Source: Succinivibrio sp. (GTDB taxonomy: Bacteria > Pseudomonadota > Gammaproteobacteria > Enterobacterales > Succinivibrionaceae). Taken from it: a DNA stretch of 64,000 nt. Below the pieces are notes generated by a model. That model saw only the letters and a list, made by a program, of their open reading frames with translations. It was not told where the DNA came from and searched no databases. The DNA is taken from contig JBNMJE010000001.1 in the NCBI GenBank assembly GCA_050873645.1, positions 4,255-68,254 of the forward strand, read 5' to 3'. How positions within the stretch are numbered: the stretch's first letter is position 1; every line of letters begins with the position of its first letter. Made by a program: the position numbers and the translations under genes. Positions 30,922-51,115 of the stretch are shown in pieces.

Positions 30922-31296
30922 GTGAGTCGACCGGGCAATCGCTGCCGTGCACGCGTGTTTAAGATCTTTAAGCATACGGTCACTGGGGGAGGAAAGTCCG
31001 AGCTCCGAAGGACAAGGTGCCAGGTAACGCCTGGAGGGCGCAAGCCCATGACAAGTGCAACAGAAAGTAAACCGCCACTTTGTGGTAAGGGTGAAATGGC
31101 GAGGTAAGAGCTCACCGCTTTTCTAGCAATAGGAAAGGCATGGTAAACTCCACCTGGAGCAAGATCAAATAGGCTCTCTATGGTTTGGTCCGAACCGAGG
31201 GCGGGTTGATTGCTGGAACCAGCGAGCGATTGCTGGTCTAGAGGAATGGTTGCCACTGCTTAGCAGAACAGAACTCGGCTTACAGGTTGACTCATC
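30922..31296 (+). ncRNA. rnpB: RNase P RNA, class A
   Basis: GGAGGAAAGTCCGAGCTCC, GTGCCAGGTAACGCCTGG, AGTGCAACAGAAAGTAAACCGCC, GGTAAACTCCACCTGGAGCAAG, AACAGAACTCGGCTTA; P1 pairing gagtcgacc/ggttgactc; TATAAT at 30912-30917. Confidence 0.97.
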
Positions 31297-31716
31297 TTTT
31301 GGCTGATTCAAAGCCATAATCCAATCATCAAGACTAACTAATGTTCGTTAAAATCAGATTAAAATCGAACTTGCTTTAGCAGTCTGTTTTTTTTTCTTTC
31401 TCCTATAGAGAATTATTGCCTATTAATCGCTCATAAAAGACTCATTAATGGTCCATTAATATCTTTTTGCACCACAAATTGTGTATTTGATCACATCCTT
31501 ATAACAACGTAATTTTAAGCCCCAATTTGCGCACATTTTTGACTGGTTTTGTTTAATAAATTGCCTTTATTAATAAAGCGATAGATATGAACAAAAGACA
31601 AAATTAATTTTTTCTCCCACATTTTTACACACTTTATAACACCTTGAAATAAAAGCAAATTTATAAAAGTAAGCTAGATTACTTTCTTGAATTTATCCTA
31701 TGATTTGGTAAACTAA

Positions 31717-45542: not shown

Positions 45543-46955
45543 ATGCTAAATATGAAGAAGAAAAACAATAATGCAGTTGCAAAGAGTGATAAGGAAGAAC
45601 TTATCACTGCCCTTGATATTGGTAGTAGCCATCTGCGTTTATTAGCAGGCTATGTAGCACCTGATAAGCAGATTAGAGTAAGAGGCTATAAAGAAATTAA
45701 GAGTGCTGGTTACTCTAAAGGCGAAATCAATGATATTACAAAGTTAGCAGCATCCATTGCTTCTGTTGTACAGCAGTTCCAAAATGAGTACGGCATAGAA
45801 GTTAAAAATGTAGTAACTGGTGTTCCAGGTCACGTCATTCAGGGCGAAAATCAGCAGGGCAATGTCACTGTAGGCACAGGACATGTAAGCGAGTTTGATA
45901 GAAATAGAGCTATTGAAAATGCTGCAGCTGGCCTTCAGCAGTTAAATCGCAATGACTTTGTGATCATTCATAAGAATCCACAGAATTATTCTACTGAGTC
46001 ATCAGAAAACATTGTCAACCCAATCGGCTTTTATGCCAAAAGACTTGATGTAAATGTACATTTCATCGGTTGTAAGGGCTTGTACAAAAAGAATATTGAA
46101 CAAGCTATCAGTATGATTAGCTCCAATATTCATACTAAGAATGTAATTTTTGTCGGAAATGCCGTCTCAGCTGCTGCGATTACTGAAAATGAAAAAGAAA
46201 TTGGTGTTATTCAGGCTGATATCGGTGGTGGCACTATTTCATTTACCGTATATGATTCAGGTAAGCAGTTAATCTCACAGGGTATTTCTGATGGTGGTGA
46301 CTATATTACCAATTCAATTGCAAGAGAGTTTGGTATTCCAAAGCAGTCGGCAGAACAGGTGAAACTTCAATATGGTATTGCTTCTCCTGAATTAATTCCT
46401 GAAGGACAAGAAGATTACCAAATCAAAGTTCAAGTTCCATCTCAGTTATCTAATAGCTATGAAGAGGTAACACTGACTATTACTGATCTTTCTACAGTGA
46501 TCCACAGATGCTTACTCAATATGTTTGAGCTTTTATTCCAGAGAATTACAAGCCATGGTAAATCCTTCTTAAAGTCCCTGGATATTGGCGCCGGTGTGGT
46601 TCTAACCGGTGGAACTGCAATGTTATATGGTATTGACAGGGTTTTATCTGAATTTATTGTTGCTTATACCCAAAATCCTGCTAATGATTTCTTACATTGC
46701 AACTACAAGGTTAAAATTGGTCTGCCTTTAGGCGTTAGAATGTGCGACGATGTGCAGATCCCTGAAGAACTTCGTGGTGAGAAAACAGGAATTGCCGTAA
46801 AACCAGATCAGGCAACAGTATTTGGCCTTTTAAGAGTAGCTAAATTTGAGAATTTAGAGCAATATTCTAATTCAAGATCAAAAGATGACGATTCTGAAGA
46901 ACATGGAAAAGGTCTCCTTGGAGCCTTCAGAAGTTGGATGAAAAGAGAGTTATAG
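45543..46955 (+). CDS. ftsA: Cell division protein FtsA (divergent)
   Basis: ALDIGSS, ADIGGGT, AEQVKLQYG, VLTGGTAML, C-terminal amphipathic helix GLLGAFRSWMKREL. Confidence 0.85.
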   Translation: MLNMKKKNNNAVAKSDKEELITALDIGSSHLRLLAGYVAPDKQIRVRGYKEIKSAGYSKGEINDITKLAASIASVVQQFQNEYGIEVKNVVTGVPGHVIQGENQQGNVTVGTGHVSEFDRNRAIENAAAGLQQLNRNDFVIIHKNPQNYSTESSENIVNPIGFYAKRLDVNVHFIGCKGLYKKNIEQAISMISSNIHTKNVIFVGNAVSAAAITENEKEIGVIQADIGGGTISFTVYDSGKQLISQGISDGGDYITNSIAREFGIPKQSAEQVKLQYGIASPELIPEGQEDYQIKVQVPSQLSNSYEEVTLTITDLSTVIHRCLLNMFELLFQRITSHGKSFLKSLDIGAGVVLTGGTAMLYGIDRVLSEFIVAYTQNPANDFLHCNYKVKIGLPLGVRMCDDVQIPEELRGEKTGIAVKPDQATVFGLLRVAKFENLEQYSNSRSKDDDSEEHGKGLLGAFRSWMKREL

Positions 46956-47066: not shown

Positions 47067-48446
47067 ATGAGCGATTTTCGTGTTGAATCAGTGTCAAATT
47101 CAAATGCAGGGAGCACTATAACTCCTTCAGGAAAATGTGTTATCAGAGTATTAGGCATCGGTGGTGGTGGCGGTAACTCACTGCAACACATGATTAATGA
47201 CAGTCTTTCAGGTGTAGAGTTTATTGCTGTAAACACAGACTCTCAGGCTCTTTCTAAGTCAACCTCACCATTAAAGGTACAGATTGGTGTTAAGTTAACA
47301 AACGGTCTTGGTGCAGGTTGTGATCCTAACAAGGGTCGTAAAGCAGCTGAGGAAAGCAAGGAAGACATCAAGAAGTTGATTCAGGGATCTGACATGGTAT
47401 TTATCACCGCAGGTATGGGCGGTGGTACTGGTACTGGTGCAGCTCCTATCATTGCTGAGATCGCTAAAGAAACAGGTGCTCTTACAGTTGCAGTTGTAAC
47501 TAAGCCATTTAAGTTTGAAGGCAAGAGACACATGGTTAATGCCGAGTCTGGTATTACCGAGCTTTCAAAGCATGTTGATTCTTTAATCGTTATCGATAAC
47601 GATAAGTTATTAAAGAACTTAGGTGCAAACATTTCTATTGTTAACGCATTTAATGCAGCTAACGATGTTCTGTTAAATGCTGTTAAGGGTATTACTGACG
47701 CAATCACAAGTCCAGGCTACATTAACCTAGACTTCGCTGATGTTGTAACCGTAATGCGCGGTCGTGGTCATGCAATGATCGGTAACGGTGTAGGTCAGGG
47801 CGCAAACTTTGTTGAGGATGCAGTTGATAGAGCAATCCACTCACCTCTAATCGAGCAGGTTGATATCAAGTCAGCAGCAGGTTTACTTGCAAATGTTCGT
47901 GTTAACCCTAACTTCCCAATTGCAAAATGGGAAGAAATTTGTAATGCAATTCAGTCATATGCTGATGAAGAGGCAGATTGCAAGTTTGGTATGAGCTTCG
48001 ACGATTCTATCGCTGAAGATCAGGTTGCAATTACCATCTTAATTACCGGTATCAGCGCAACTGACAATACTTTAGCTGCTAACAAGCCTCGTCCAAACAC
48101 AGTTGAAGGTTTAAATCGTCCTGCAATGCCAGGTACAAGACCTGCAGCAACTAGAGGTTTCTTTACTCAGGCAAGAACTGATGCAGCTCCTCAGAGCTTC
48201 ACCGCTTCACAGCCTCAGCAGCAGTCACAGCAGCAGCCTCTGCAGCAACCACATGCTCAGACACCTGATCCATTTGCTCAGACTGCTTACAACGGAAGCT
48301 TCGGCTCAGCAGCTCCTCAGGAGCCTACATTCTCAGGCTTAAAGGGTGCAACTGAAGTTCCTGTAGACAGCTTTGGTAAGAGCCCAGCTGAAGATAACAG
48401 CAATATTTGGGAATTACCTCCAATCTTACGTTCAAAGTCTGAATAA
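47067..48446 (+). CDS. ftsZ: FtsZ copy 1 (full length, long linker, divergent C-terminal peptide)
   Basis: [16 protein letters not shown]7 loop INLDFADV, about 130-aa tail ending IWELPPILRSKSE. Confidence 0.96.
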   Translation: MSDFRVESVSNSNAGSTITPSGKCVIRVLGIGGGGGNSLQHMINDSLSGVEFIAVNTDSQALSKSTSPLKVQIGVKLTNGLGAGCDPNKGRKAAEESKEDIKKLIQGSDMVFITAGMGGGTGTGAAPIIAEIAKETGALTVAVVTKPFKFEGKRHMVNAESGITELSKHVDSLIVIDNDKLLKNLGANISIVNAFNAANDVLLNAVKGITDAITSPGYINLDFADVVTVMRGRGHAMIGNGVGQGANFVEDAVDRAIHSPLIEQVDIKSAAGLLANVRVNPNFPIAKWEEICNAIQSYADEEADCKFGMSFDDSIAEDQVAITILITGISATDNTLAANKPRPNTVEGLNRPAMPGTRPAATRGFFTQARTDAAPQSFTASQPQQQSQQQPLQQPHAQTPDPFAQTAYNGSFGSAAPQEPTFSGLKGATEVPVDSFGKSPAEDNSNIWELPPILRSKSE

Positions 48447-48478
48447 TTAGACTAAATCTTGTAAGATACAACGAATTT

Positions 48479-48503
48479 AAAACGGAGCTTAGGCTCCGTT
48501 TTT
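48479..48503 (+). terminator. Intrinsic terminator between the two ftsZ genes
   Basis: aaaacggagc-ttag-gctccgtttt. Confidence 0.85.
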
Positions 48504-48610
48504 CGTTATGATTTCCTTATTTTTATAATTCCTCGAACTTACGTCCCCTAACTTTAAAAATCCCTTTTTTACTCAATTTGTGTGCACAAACTAGAAATAT
48601 CCGCCTAAGG

Positions 48611-48638
48611 TTGCAAAATAAATTTGATTTTTTATAAT
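48611..48638 (+). promoter_or_regulatory. Sigma70-like promoter for ftsZ copy 2
   Basis: TTGCAA-N16-TATAAT, with GGAG upstream of the ATG at 48674. Confidence 0.6.
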
Positions 48639-48673
48639 GTCATTCAATATAAACTTGCGGAGCCAAGAGATAA

Positions 48674-49720
48674 ATGAGTGATATTAAAGTAGAAAACGAT
48701 ATCAACATGCAGGGAGATACTATTACTCCATCATGTGGTTGTGTAATTAGAGTAATTGGTGTCGGTGGCGGTGGTAACAACGCACTGCAGTATATGCTTG
48801 ATAAAAATTTAGCCGGCGTCGAGTGCATGGCTATCAATACTGATCCTCAGACTCTTGAAAGAACCAATGCTAAATTAAAAGTGCAGATTGGTGTAAGAAC
48901 TACCAATGGTCTAGGTGCAGGTTGTGATCCAAACAAGGGACGCAAGGCAGCTGAAGAGAGCTATGAAGACATTAAAAAGTTATTAGCAGGCTCTGACATG
49001 GTATTTATCACTGCAGGTATGGGCGGTGGTACCGGTACTGGTGCTTCTCCAATTGTGGCAAAAGTGGCTAGAGAGGTTGGTGCATTAACTATTGCTATCG
49101 TAACTCAGCCATTCTCCTTTGAAGGTAAGCGTCACCGTATCAATGCTATGGCAGGTATTGGTGAACTTGCTAAGAATGTTGATTCCATCATTATTGTGGA
49201 TAATGACAAGTTATTAAGAAACTTAGGTCCTAATGTTTCTTTAAAGACAGCTTTTGAAAAGGCTAATGAAGTTTTATATCAAGCAGTAGAAGGTATTACC
49301 TCTGCTATTACCAATACTGGCTATATCAATCTTGATTTTGCTGATATTGTAACTGTAATGAGAAACAGTGGTTTAGCTATGATTGGTTCATCTGAAGGTC
49401 AGGGACCAAACTTAGTTGAAGATACTGTTAAGAAGGCTATCAACTCTCCATTAGTCGATAACGTAAACTTAGGATCAGCAACAGGTTTAATTGCTAATAT
49501 CAGAGTAAGTCAGAATATTCCTGTAAATATCCTGTCTGAAGTCTGCGATGCTATTCAGTCATATGCTAGAGAAGATGCTACCTGTAAGTTTGGCTTGTAT
49601 TTTGATGACAAACTTGAAGATGGCAAGATTGCAGCTACTGTTTTAGTAACTGGTATTAGCTCAACTGATATTGATTTACCATCAAATCAGGCTATCAACA
49701 GACTAAATCCAATGAACTAA
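48674..49720 (+). CDS. ftsZ: FtsZ copy 2 (GTPase core only, about 20-aa tail)
   Basis: [23 protein letters not shown] intact; ends 20 residues after the TGI motif. Confidence 0.93.
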
Positions 49721-49860: not shown

Positions 49861-49899
49861 AAAAGCGTAATTGCACTAGACATGTAATTACGCTTTTTT
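49861..49899 (+). terminator. Intrinsic terminator after ftsZ copy 2
   Basis: aaaagcgtaattgca / tgtaattacgctttt stem followed by a T run. Confidence 0.75.
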
Positions 49900-50176
49900 C
49901 TATAATTTATTCAGAAAATAAAAATAGGTTTGTCGCTTTCTGCTAATTTATCCCTAAGAATAAGCGACTAATATCACATGCAGCAAATAAAAGATTTGGG
50001 AACTTTTGTTAAATTCAAGGCTCTAACAAAAGGACTTTAACAAAGAAGCTCTGACAAAGAGCTTTAACAAAATATAGTTAAGTTTTGTTTAACTTATTGT
50101 TAAAAATGTTCGCTAGATCGCAAAAAAGTTATATAATGTGCACCAATTCTGCACCATATTGGCGTGAGGTATTCAA

Positions 50177-51115
50177 ATGATCAAGCAGAGAACAATCCTA
50201 AAACCTGTATCAATGACAGGTATCGGTCTTCATTCTGGTGCTAAGGTAGAAGTGGCTTTCAGACCAGCTCCTGCTAATACCGGTCTTGTTTATACACGCA
50301 CAGATTTAAATCCTGCCGTAACCATCAAATGTACAGCTGATTCAGTTAGAGATACTCAGTTATGTACCGCTTTAGTTAACGATAACGGTGTCAGAATTTC
50401 TACTGTTGAACATCTTACCGCAGCTTTGAGTTCACTTGGTATCGATAACCTTTTCATCGATGTTAACGCTCCTGAAATTCCTGTAATGGATGGTTCAGCA
50501 CAACCTTTTATTTACCTGTTCGGTACTACCGGCATTAAAGAGTTAGCTACTCCTAAAAAGTTTTTAAGAGTTGCTCGTAAGGTACGTGTAGAAAACGAAG
50601 GTAAGTGGGCAGAATTAACTCCTTCTGAGAGTGGTTTCCATTTAGATTTACAAATCGACTTTAACCACCCTGCAATGGACAGAGATAAGCAGCACTTTGC
50701 AATGGACTTTACAGGTCAGAAGTTTGCAAGTGAAGTTTCTCGTGCTCGTACTTTCTGCTTCATGCGTGATGTTGAATTTATGCATGCTCATAACTTAGCT
50801 TTAGGTGGTTCTTTAGAGAACGCTGTAGTTTTAGATGACAACAGAGTAATCAATCCTGAAGGCCTGCGTTACGAAGATGAGTTCGTAAAGCACAAGTTAC
50901 TAGATGCTATCGGTGATCTGTACATGGATGGTCACAGCATCCTAGGTAATTTCAAAGCTTATAAGACCGGTCATGATTTAAACAACCGTCTTTTAAGAGC
51001 ATTCTTAGCAGATCCTAAGAACTATGAAGTTATCGAGTTTACTGATGAAGTAGCTGATAGCGCAGAACATGCTATCGATTTTTTGGATAGCAAGAAAGCA
51101 TTAAGAGCCTTTTAA
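50177..51115 (+). CDS. lpxC: UDP-3-O-acyl-GlcNAc deacetylase
   Basis: [38 protein letters not shown]. Confidence 0.97.

Follow-up and report, generated by a model that had tools for sequence, protein, structure and literature searches.

We describe a second ftsZ gene, ftsZ2, located directly downstream of the canonical ftsZ (ftsZ1) in a stretch of 64,000 nucleotides (nt) from Succinivibrio sp. (assembly GCA_050873645.1, contig JBNMJE010000001.1, positions 4,255 to 68,254), hereafter referred to as the window. A preliminary description of its sequence had reported two adjacent ftsZ genes, one full-length and the other tail-less, and both open reading frames (ORFs) were recovered at exactly the same coordinates and with the same lengths (Table 1). 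We consider it somewhat better supported than not that ftsZ2 is a functional, separately transcribed native paralog, whose product most likely co-assembles with FtsZ1 and tunes the Z-ring.

A complete FtsZ core without a tail

FtsZ1 and FtsZ2 are 63% identical and 82% similar over 340 amino acids (aa; E 3e-141), and the idiosyncratic residues that had previously been listed as common to both copies were all found in both proteins, as was CKFG. FtsZ2 contains the G-box GGGTGTG, which corresponds to the tubulin signature GGGTG(T/S)G, and keeps the T7 synergy loop NLDFAD, in which not a single change is fixed across the tail-less clade. The NxDxxD motif of this loop completes the GTPase site of the next subunit in the filament. 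At loops T3 (10/10 positions), T4 (7/7) and T6 (3/3), all five tail-less orthologs follow the canonical consensus, T5 follows it at 8/10, and the T1 motif GGGGNN is the normal form of Bacillus subtilis. Residues 22-330 match solved FtsZ structures at E 3e-83 (subtracting 12 from an FtsZ2 position gives the E. coli/Klebsiella numbering). Accordingly, the AlphaFold2 model (predicted local distance difference test, pLDDT, 83; predicted template modelling score, pTM, 0.82) shows the complete FtsZ fold with confidence at residues 24-330, while residues 1-20 and the stub 332-348 are of low confidence or disordered. The two-subdomain FtsZ fold is also found in the domain records, as the entries of P0041, a fragment encoded by the window, and of P0001, a 95% identical protein, list both PF00091 and PF12327. 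The longitudinal interface was assessed by the conservation of the sequence in each structural element. Overall, FtsZ2 is predicted to keep a complete, catalytically competent GTPase and polymerisation core. Relative to canonical FtsZ, the tail-less clade has 26 fixed differences (residues fixed in the clade that differ from a canonical residue conserved at ≥85%), which are mainly located in surface loops and in helices H1, H7, H9 and H10.

The disordered linker and the FtsA/ZipA-binding C-terminal peptide that characterize canonical division FtsZ are both present in FtsZ1 and both absent from FtsZ2, which ends 18 residues past the last strand of the globular domain. The FtsZ1 peptide IWELPPILRSKSE aligns with LPPILR(S/N)K in the canonical FtsZ proteins of the Succinivibrionaceae and with DIPAFLRRQAD in those of the outgroups. 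No LPPILR-type peptide was found in the FtsZ2 protein, and no remnant of a linker or tail peptide was found 3' of its stop codon in any of the three reading frames. A reading of the DIDLP... residues at its end as a vestige of the anchor peptide was rejected: the stub aligns with the first linker residues of full-length paralogs (e.g., P0044 TNLPSERAKNRL and P0039 TNLPSVKARGNL) and is therefore a retained proximal linker, not a decayed anchor peptide. Within the tail-less clade, the stub follows the conserved pattern (P/A)SNQA(I/L)..L.P.

Both paralogs also have an N-terminal extension of about 24 residues (47067-47140 and 48674-48745) that is predicted to be disordered and has a conserved start, MSD(F/I)(R/K)VE...TITPS, whereas E. 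coli FtsZ has only about 12 residues ahead of the first strand. The conservation of this extension across paralogs and species, despite its predicted disorder, suggests that it has a function of its own.

The tail-less pair is found in independent assemblies

The ftsZ1-ftsZ2 tandem is present in at least seven independent assemblies (L002, L003, L006, L007, L008, L009 and L062). Its carriers include four GTDB species representatives, namely two labelled Succinatimonas (sp. UBA6849 and sp. CAG:777), a Succinivibrio, uncultured, from a Hadza sample, and the rumen metagenome-assembled genome (MAG) hRUG862, with FtsZ2 proteins 93-99% identical to that of the window. More distant orthologs of 351 aa, with 70-71% identity, occupy the same slot in L002/L003 (a Succinivibrio MAG, GCA_051891035.1) and L062. 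Overall, the ftsZ2 frame is open in eight genomes (the window and seven others) at 70-99% identity, confirming that copy 2 is intact in sister species and has not become a pseudogene there. The proteins nearest to FtsZ2 all come from Succinivibrio and Succinivibrionaceae, which confirms the family assumed in the preliminary description. At 90% identity, the cluster represented by the tail-less form P0001 comprises 398 sequences; therefore, tail-less ftsZ2 is common in metagenomes.

These occurrences bear on the possibility that the tandem is an assembly artefact, produced by the collapse or chimerism of the ftsZ genes of two strains. The concern is understandable since some database proteins of the family are indeed artefacts: the public entry P0002 joins a Firmicute-like N-terminus to tail-less FtsZ2, and P0026 is an ftsZ1 product frameshifted in the Q-rich linker. 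Nevertheless, the ftsZ1-ftsZ2-lpxC order is recovered in UBA6849, CAG:777, the Hadza MAG, hRUG862 and GCA_051891035.1, which come from different studies and hosts, and the two copies, only 74% identical in their best 300 nt of DNA, are too diverged to be strain variants. Misassembly, named in the preliminary description among the outcomes that would refute it, is thus contradicted by the data and extremely improbable. A further public entry, P0067, appears to fuse the N-terminus of a 401-aa form (described below) with an FtsZ1 tail.

Purifying selection on ftsZ2

The evolutionary rates show that ftsZ2 is as strongly constrained as its essential neighbours and is under strong purifying selection. 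Among species at unsaturated synonymous divergence (dS 0.2-0.7), its ratio of nonsynonymous to synonymous divergence (dN/dS) is 0.012-0.036; in the same genome pairs, this ratio is 0.021-0.029 for lpxC, 0.016-0.056 for acnB, 0.035-0.083 for ftsQ and 0.044-0.135 for ftsA. The earlier proposal that copy 2 is well diverged yet maintained by selection is therefore supported, with values equal to those of lpxC. The opposite view, a decaying or neutral duplicate without function that is on its way to becoming a pseudogene, could appeal to the truncation of ftsZ2 relative to ftsZ1 and to its protein evolution, about five times faster than that of the FtsZ1 core (dN 0.22 vs 0.043, window vs L002). However, such a duplicate is contradicted by the dN/dS values, by the open frame in the eight genomes with all catalytic motifs kept, and by the transcription of the gene from conserved signals (next section), so that we regard it as highly improbable.

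The FtsZ1 core is 100% identical in L006, L007 and L009, about 94-95% identical in L002 and 94% in L004. In contrast, past residue 335 (mostly linker), FtsZ1 has a dN/dS of 0.05-0.28 and only 56-76% identity where the core stays at 95-99%.

Two other patterns were observed in the neighbourhood. First, ftsZ2, ftsQ and lpxC have 2.5-3 times the synonymous divergence of the ftsZ1 core (47067-48071) in the same genome pairs (e.g., 0.19-0.21 vs 0.077). Codon bias is unsupported as the cause of the low ftsZ1 value, the effective number of codons being 41 for ftsZ1 and 35.5 for ftsZ2; constraint at the nucleotide level or recombination between strains are possible explanations. Second, FtsA diverges unusually fast. 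The window and L002 proteins share only 51% identity, against 95% for the FtsZ1 core of this pair, and FtsA reaches 91% in the comparison with L006, against 98-100% for all neighbouring genes. In most comparisons (window vs L002, L006, L007 and L008), its dN/dS (0.04-0.135) is the highest of the cluster. As FtsA is the partner of the FtsZ tail, a connection between this divergence and the way FtsZ tails turn over in the family is possible.

ftsZ2 is its own transcription unit

Transcription was analysed in two bovine-gut (rumen) metatranscriptomes, X1 and X2, which contain contigs of a relative about 95% identical to the window. The contig depth is 34 (X1) and 69 (X2) over ftsA, 171-242 (X1) and 187 (X2) over ftsZ1, and 122 (X1) and 57 (X2) over ftsZ2, i.e., 0.3-0.7 of the ftsZ1 depth. 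Between the two ftsZ genes, it falls from 171-187 to 0-2 at the hairpin following ftsZ1, and the spacer 48464-48655 (0-2 in X1; 0 in X2) is still empty when the match threshold is set to 80%. The ftsZ2 contigs begin at 48663 and 48671, 25-33 nt past the predicted -10 element. The unequal depths and the empty spacer argue for RNA over contaminating DNA and for a separate ftsZ2 transcript. Therefore, ftsZ2 is its own transcription unit, and it is transcribed in a close rumen relative. Downstream, the ftsZ2 contig continues into lpxC in X1, while in X2 it stops at 49709 and the lpxC contig begins at 50085; read-through from ftsZ2 into lpxC is thus possible.

The signals in the DNA agree with this pattern. 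The hairpin after ftsZ1 is conserved in L006-L009 with changes in the loop only, and L002 and L062 have a hairpin of unrelated sequence (CAGCCGAT...ATCGGCTG) at the same place. A simple terminator scan picked up neither this hairpin nor the one after ftsZ2. Both promoter hexamers of ftsZ2, together with the entire leader up to its ATG, are conserved in L006-L009, whereas the spacer further upstream has diverged; the equivalent in L002 and L062 reads TTGTAT...TATAAA/TATAGA. Promoter-like sites in the region are not above chance in a consensus scan (9 found vs 9.4 expected), so the consensus match of the ftsZ2 promoter proves nothing on its own and the weight is carried by its conservation and by the RNA contigs. 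Taken together, the hairpin z-scores (Table 1), the conserved hexamers and the contig pattern corroborate the transcription signals that the preliminary description had assigned to each copy, and the expression of copy 2, for which it had called, is found in the rumen data.

Second ftsZ copies across the Succinivibrionaceae

The tail-less gene is not the only second ftsZ of the family. In the same slot between ftsZ1 and lpxC, S. dextrinosolvens and other Succinivibrionaceae encode a second FtsZ with the same family signature (GCDPN, see below), but these copies, of 401-604 aa, keep the linker and the tail, and the T7 loop of some reads NVDFND or NVDLND; the FtsZ2 of the window is the tail-less end of the series. 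In S. dextrinosolvens (L004/L005), ftsZ1 (451 aa) is followed by two NMT1-like genes, a second ftsZ of 401-403 aa with a short linker and WNLPPILNSRNEF, and lpxC. In another Succinivibrio lineage (L060/L061), ftsZ1 (445 aa) precedes an ftsZ of 521 aa, with the tail ELPPILSSKPE, and lpxC. L067 has the order ftsZ1 (452 aa), ftsZ (588 aa) and lpxC, its second copy showing a Q/N-rich linker, LELPPILNRNLK and NVDLND in T7. In Ca. Anaerobiospirillum merdipullorum (L068), ftsZ1 (472 aa) is followed by an ftsZ of 456 aa (tail VPPILRGRAD; NVDFND in T7), a yrbL-like gene and lpxC. Additional long second-copy forms measure 504-604 aa. Many second copies have a tail peptide that deviates at the conserved Arg (LPPILNSRNEF, LPPILSSKPE, LPPILNRNLK), and a canonical one is also found (VPPILRGRAD). 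No second ftsZ was found in L066 within the 5 kb examined 3' of ftsZ1. For the 402-aa S. dextrinosolvens form P0131 and also for the 453-aa FtsZ1 P0008, the longest contig on record measures 3,468,545 bp, which suggests that both are on the chromosome of a complete, cultured genome.

The slot also carries passengers, namely two NMT1/THI5-like binding-protein genes in S. dextrinosolvens (L004 6576-8783), a YrbL/PhoP-network-like gene in Anaerobiospirillum (L068 7936-8574) and a 199-aa gene on the opposite strand in L060 (8883-9482).

Origin of the duplication

The GCDPN signature is common to all Succinivibrionaceae copies, whereas outgroup FtsZ has GANP; therefore, the paralogs arose within Succinivibrionaceae or on its stem. 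ftsZ2 is native to the family. A foreign or phage origin was rejected since its nearest relatives are the family's own FtsZ proteins, with which it shares GCDPN, and its GC content (0.387) and GC content at third codon positions (GC3; 0.275) are typical of the genes of the cluster. A recent duplication and a recent gene conversion were equally rejected because the dS between ftsZ1 and ftsZ2 is saturated (1.5-2.1) and their DNA identity is at most 74%, reached in the best-conserved 300 nt. Consequently, the duplication within the lineage proposed in the preliminary description holds in the sense that the gene is native to the family, but the event is neither recent nor private to the lineage, as second copies are present in S. 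dextrinosolvens, other Succinivibrio and an Anaerobiospirillum MAG. Just 3' of the ftsZ2 stop codon, the sequence TAAGAGAGTAAAAA matches the ribosome-binding region of ftsZ1 over 14 nt; this match was also considered as a relic of the duplication junction and rejected, as it is not conserved in L007, L008 and L002.

Within Succinivibrio, ten informative sites join the tail-less and the S. dextrinosolvens-type copies, one joins the S. dextrinosolvens-type copies and FtsZ1, and none joins the tail-less copies and FtsZ1. In neighbor-joining (NJ) reconstructions, the monophyly of the tail-less, 401-aa and 521-aa forms has bootstraps of 65-86%, while the branching of the 401-aa form with FtsZ1 was never obtained (0%). 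The tail-less clade has a bootstrap of 100% and a shared stub. Since second copies elsewhere mostly keep the linker and the tail peptide, the tail-less state is a later loss in one subclade. From these sequence comparisons, the most economical scenario would be that ftsZ was duplicated once, before Succinivibrio radiated, and that linker and tail were then lost a single time, in the common ancestor of the tail-less clade. When distant outgroups were used to root the NJ tree, the second copies formed a basal grade ordered by branch length; this topology was read as a long-branch artefact and was not used for dating the duplication.

The placement of the more distant second copies must be interpreted cautiously. 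Derived states shared among at least three second-copy groups were found in only 6 of 200 conserved columns, and the Anaerobiospirillum second copy carries the N-terminal peptide of its own genus (MSEFKVAAVSN...), which would fit either an independent duplication or a gene conversion of the 5' end. The Anaerobiospirillum and 580-aa forms could thus derive either from the same event as the Succinivibrio duplication or from several duplications. In another Succinivibrionaceae MAG (L058 3930-4976), the sole ftsZ between ftsA and lpxC encodes a tail-less protein with an FtsZ1-like core (P0063, 348 aa). The same samples (ERZ12302817 and ERZ28613016) contain a full-length protein (P0083, 458 aa, LPPILSNKSL), encoded after a gyrB/parE-like gene (L063 1847-3223). 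P0063 and P0083 are sisters in 89-95% of the NJ bootstraps, and both contigs are short and of low coverage. This arrangement suggests a second, independent origin of tail-less FtsZ, in which the roles of the two loci are swapped.

Comparison with known FtsZ paralogs

Truncated FtsZ paralogs are already known as a kind, and the Succinivibrio case is one of independent origin. FtsZ2 falls within their published definition, which covers Agrobacterium tumefaciens FtsZ1, Sinorhizobium meliloti FtsZ2 and Magnetospirillum gryphiswaldense FtsZm (10.1101/412759). Like the truncated paralogs of Rhizobiaceae and Phyllobacteraceae (A. tumefaciens FtsZ1, S. meliloti FtsZ2), it has a complete GTPase domain, lacks the linker and the peptide, and is found beside a full-length FtsZ; those paralogs have likewise been kept by selection over long periods, and the role proposed for them is to tune division through co-polymers. 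However, the Succinivibrio protein is of independent descent. Its nearest relatives are Succinivibrionaceae FtsZ and its GCDPN is absent from the outgroups; therefore, the likeness to the alphaproteobacterial paralogs is convergent and does not reflect orthology. It also belongs to the class Gammaproteobacteria, and its sister lineages still have full-length second copies. Moreover, the alphaproteobacterial duplicates are defined as lying outside the division and cell-wall (dcw) operon (10.1101/2025.09.29.679267), whereas ftsZ2 is inside the dcw cluster, between ftsZ1 and lpxC. Neither this tandem position nor a series of tail variants across one family has been described for the alphaproteobacterial cases.

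A. tumefaciens FtsZ1 (Atu_4673), which has no linker or tail peptide, is the closest experimental precedent by analogy: it locates to mid-cell only with canonical FtsZ, does not polymerise alone and co-polymerises with canonical FtsZ (10.1101/412759), and its overproduction blocks division (10.1101/2025.09.29.679267). M. gryphiswaldense FtsZm is also a truncated paralog beside a canonical FtsZ; as summarized in 10.1101/412759, it is dispensable for division and has a condition-dependent role. Unlike ftsZ2, which is in the division cluster with no organelle context, FtsZm is found in magnetosome gene clusters and linked to biomineralisation.

The chloroplast FtsZ1/FtsZ2 pair (FtsZB/FtsZA) provides the best functional analogy for a two-component ring. 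Its two types differ in their C-terminal motifs (PMC11285052) and assemble into heteropolymers, with one type providing the backbone and the other stimulating remodelling (PMC3494859, PMC8142252). On the Succinivibrio side, the likeness concerns the architecture only (a tailed and a tail-less FtsZ, both transcribed). The chloroplast proteins differ in being eukaryotic organelle proteins of cyanobacterial descent. Both are required in the plastid (PMC8142252), and plastid FtsZ1 retains a linker and its own C-terminal motif (PMC11285052), unlike Succinivibrio FtsZ2.

A possible role in the Z-ring

FtsA/ZipA and many regulators dock on the C-terminal peptide of FtsZ, whose GTPase site forms only between stacked subunits. 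By itself, FtsZ2 would most likely be unable to build a membrane-attached ring. Given its complete core, its lack of a tether, its own promoter and its strong constraint, together with the docking role of the tail, we infer that FtsZ2 joins FtsZ1 filaments, where it would be inserted head-to-tail. Its presence would make tethering and regulatory tails sparser along the Z-ring, and fewer tails could tune filament dynamics, tethering, bundling, turnover or the activation of septal wall synthesis, the dose of FtsZ2 being presumably set by its own promoter. Co-polymerisation with FtsZ1 and a modulatory role are thus proposed by analogy with the truncated paralogs discussed above.

Several observations weigh against this proposal. 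The RNA data consist of assembled contigs from the relative only about 95% identical to the window, carry no strand information, and give depth as a crude measure. Furthermore, 14 of the 26 fixed differences of the tail-less clade are in the C-terminal subdomain, which contributes one filament-contact face, and judging from these substitutions it is possible that the assembly of FtsZ2 is weakened or one-sided, i.e., capping. Finally, a dedicated binding partner for the conserved stub SNQA(I/L)..L.P is conceivable, and FtsZ2 could then have a role independent of FtsZ1.

The second of these points leads to an alternative in which FtsZ2 is a division inhibitor or filament cap that binds the ends or subunits of FtsZ1 by one intact interface, acting as a condition-switched, SulA-like brake that the cell derives from FtsZ itself. 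Besides the enrichment of fixed substitutions in the C-terminal subdomain, the separate promoter and terminator of ftsZ2 and the division block caused by overproduced A. tumefaciens FtsZ1 are in line with it. Nevertheless, a pure cap would need neither the catalytic residues of T7 nor the nucleotide-binding loops, which are all kept, and a contig depth of 0.3-0.7 relative to ftsZ1 in the rumen looks constitutive and high for an inhibitor. We therefore consider this role unlikely, though worth keeping in mind.

The third point relates to the idea of FtsZ2 as a cytoskeletal element in its own right, acting outside the Z-ring and serving, for example, the curved or helical shape of Succinivibrio, with the stub or the N-terminal peptide binding a partner other than FtsA. 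The conservation of the stub and of the N-terminal MSD(I/V)KVEN across the tail-less clade, as well as its 26 fixed differences from canonical FtsZ, could be explained in this way. However, no co-conserved partner gene is found beside ftsZ2, the adjacent genes varying among lineages; the second copies of sister lineages keep an FtsA-type tail (LPPILNS..., VPPILRGRAD), indicating a division-related ancestry; and the truncated paralogs studied to date depend on canonical FtsZ. This possibility seems distinctly unlikely, and co-assembly with FtsZ1 is still the reading that we favour.

Organization of the locus

The window contains a complete division and cell-wall cluster, in the order murD, ftsW, murG, murC, ftsQ, ftsA, ftsZ1, ftsZ2, lpxC, an AmpD-like amidase gene and acnB. 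The features around the two ftsZ genes are listed in Table 1.

Table 1. Position of the genes, protein segments and candidate signals of the ftsZ1-ftsZ2 region in the window.
Feature	Coordinates	Strand	Description
ftsA	45543..46955	+	470 aa; membrane tether binding the FtsZ C-terminal peptide; 5' neighbour; from the ORF and syntenic genes of relatives with Pfam SHS2_FTSA and FtsA
ftsZ1	47067..48446	+	459 aa; canonical, full-length: N-terminal peptide, GTPase core, linker, C-terminal peptide
FtsZ1 C-terminal linker	48057..48404	+	Residues ~331-446 (~115 residues); Q/P-rich, weakly conserved; from the alignment
FtsZ1 conserved C-terminal peptide IWELPPILRSKSE	48405..48443	+	FtsA/ZipA-binding type; last residues of FtsZ1
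Terminator-like hairpin and T-run after ftsZ1	48479..48505	+	-18.5 kcal/mol; z = -5.6
Sigma-70-like promoter of ftsZ2, TTGCAA-16 nt-TATAAT	48611..48638	+	10/12 consensus positions
Shine-Dalgarno-like stretch GGAGCCAAGAGA before the ftsZ2 ATG	48659..48670	+	Read from the sequence; conserved in L006-L009
ftsZ2	48674..49720	+	348 aa; tail-less paralog: N-terminal peptide, complete GTPase core, 18-residue stub
FtsZ2 stub	49664..49717	+	18 residues; homologous to the linker start of full-length paralogs; from the alignment
Terminator-like hairpin and T-run after ftsZ2	49861..49899	+	-19.0 kcal/mol; z = -6.9
lpxC	50177..51115	+	Conserved downstream boundary of the ftsZ1-ftsZ2 slot; Pfam LpxC in syntenic genes of relatives

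The 456-bp spacer upstream of lpxC contains direct repeats, AAAG(G/A)(A/G)CTTTAACAAA, 27 nt apart, at 50010-50075, and a small inverted repeat, AAGCTCT..AGAGCTT; these repeats may be a regulator-binding site or a leader element. Elsewhere in the window, a full-length RNase P RNA gene of bacterial class A is found at 30923-31298 on the forward strand (Rfam RF00010, 315 bits).

Significance for the Succinivibrionaceae

A second ftsZ at this position in Succinivibrionaceae appears to be previously undescribed. A recent survey of FtsZ duplications refers to at least five that arose independently in bacteria, with no mention of Gammaproteobacteria (10.1101/2025.09.29.679267). Our literature search retrieved no report linking FtsZ paralogs with Succinivibrio or Succinivibrionaceae, or describing one in Gammaproteobacteria, and the genome paper of S. 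dextrinosolvens Z6 makes no mention of ftsZ. In public databases, both genes are simply annotated as cell division protein FtsZ.

Tail-less FtsZ paralogs are known from Alphaproteobacteria, plastids and archaea, and their purpose is still debated. Gammaproteobacteria is the class of E. coli, in which FtsA, ZipA, MinC, SlmA, ZapD and ClpX, the partners of the FtsZ tail, are best characterized. The Succinivibrionaceae offer, at one locus, a natural series comprising canonical FtsZ, second copies with an Arg-altered peptide, forms with very long linkers, and a form with no tail. This series permits asking directly what the linker and the tail peptide contribute and whether the dilution of tethers tunes ring dynamics, and S. 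dextrinosolvens, which is cultured and has a complete genome, is an experimental entry point. The family is abundant in the rumen and in non-westernised human guts and has been linked to low methane emission (PMC7507024, PMC4619255), which gives its cell biology some applied interest.

More broadly, we tentatively raise the possibility, itself unlikely, that Succinivibrionaceae divide with a two-FtsZ Z-ring, in which the old second lineage of the ftsZ1-lpxC slot is a standing partner of FtsZ1 that diversified from tether-variant (LPPILN/S..., 401-604 aa) to tether-less forms. If true, such a ring would be a bacterial counterpart of the division of labour between chloroplast FtsZ1 and FtsZ2, in the proteobacterial class where division with a single FtsZ is best understood.

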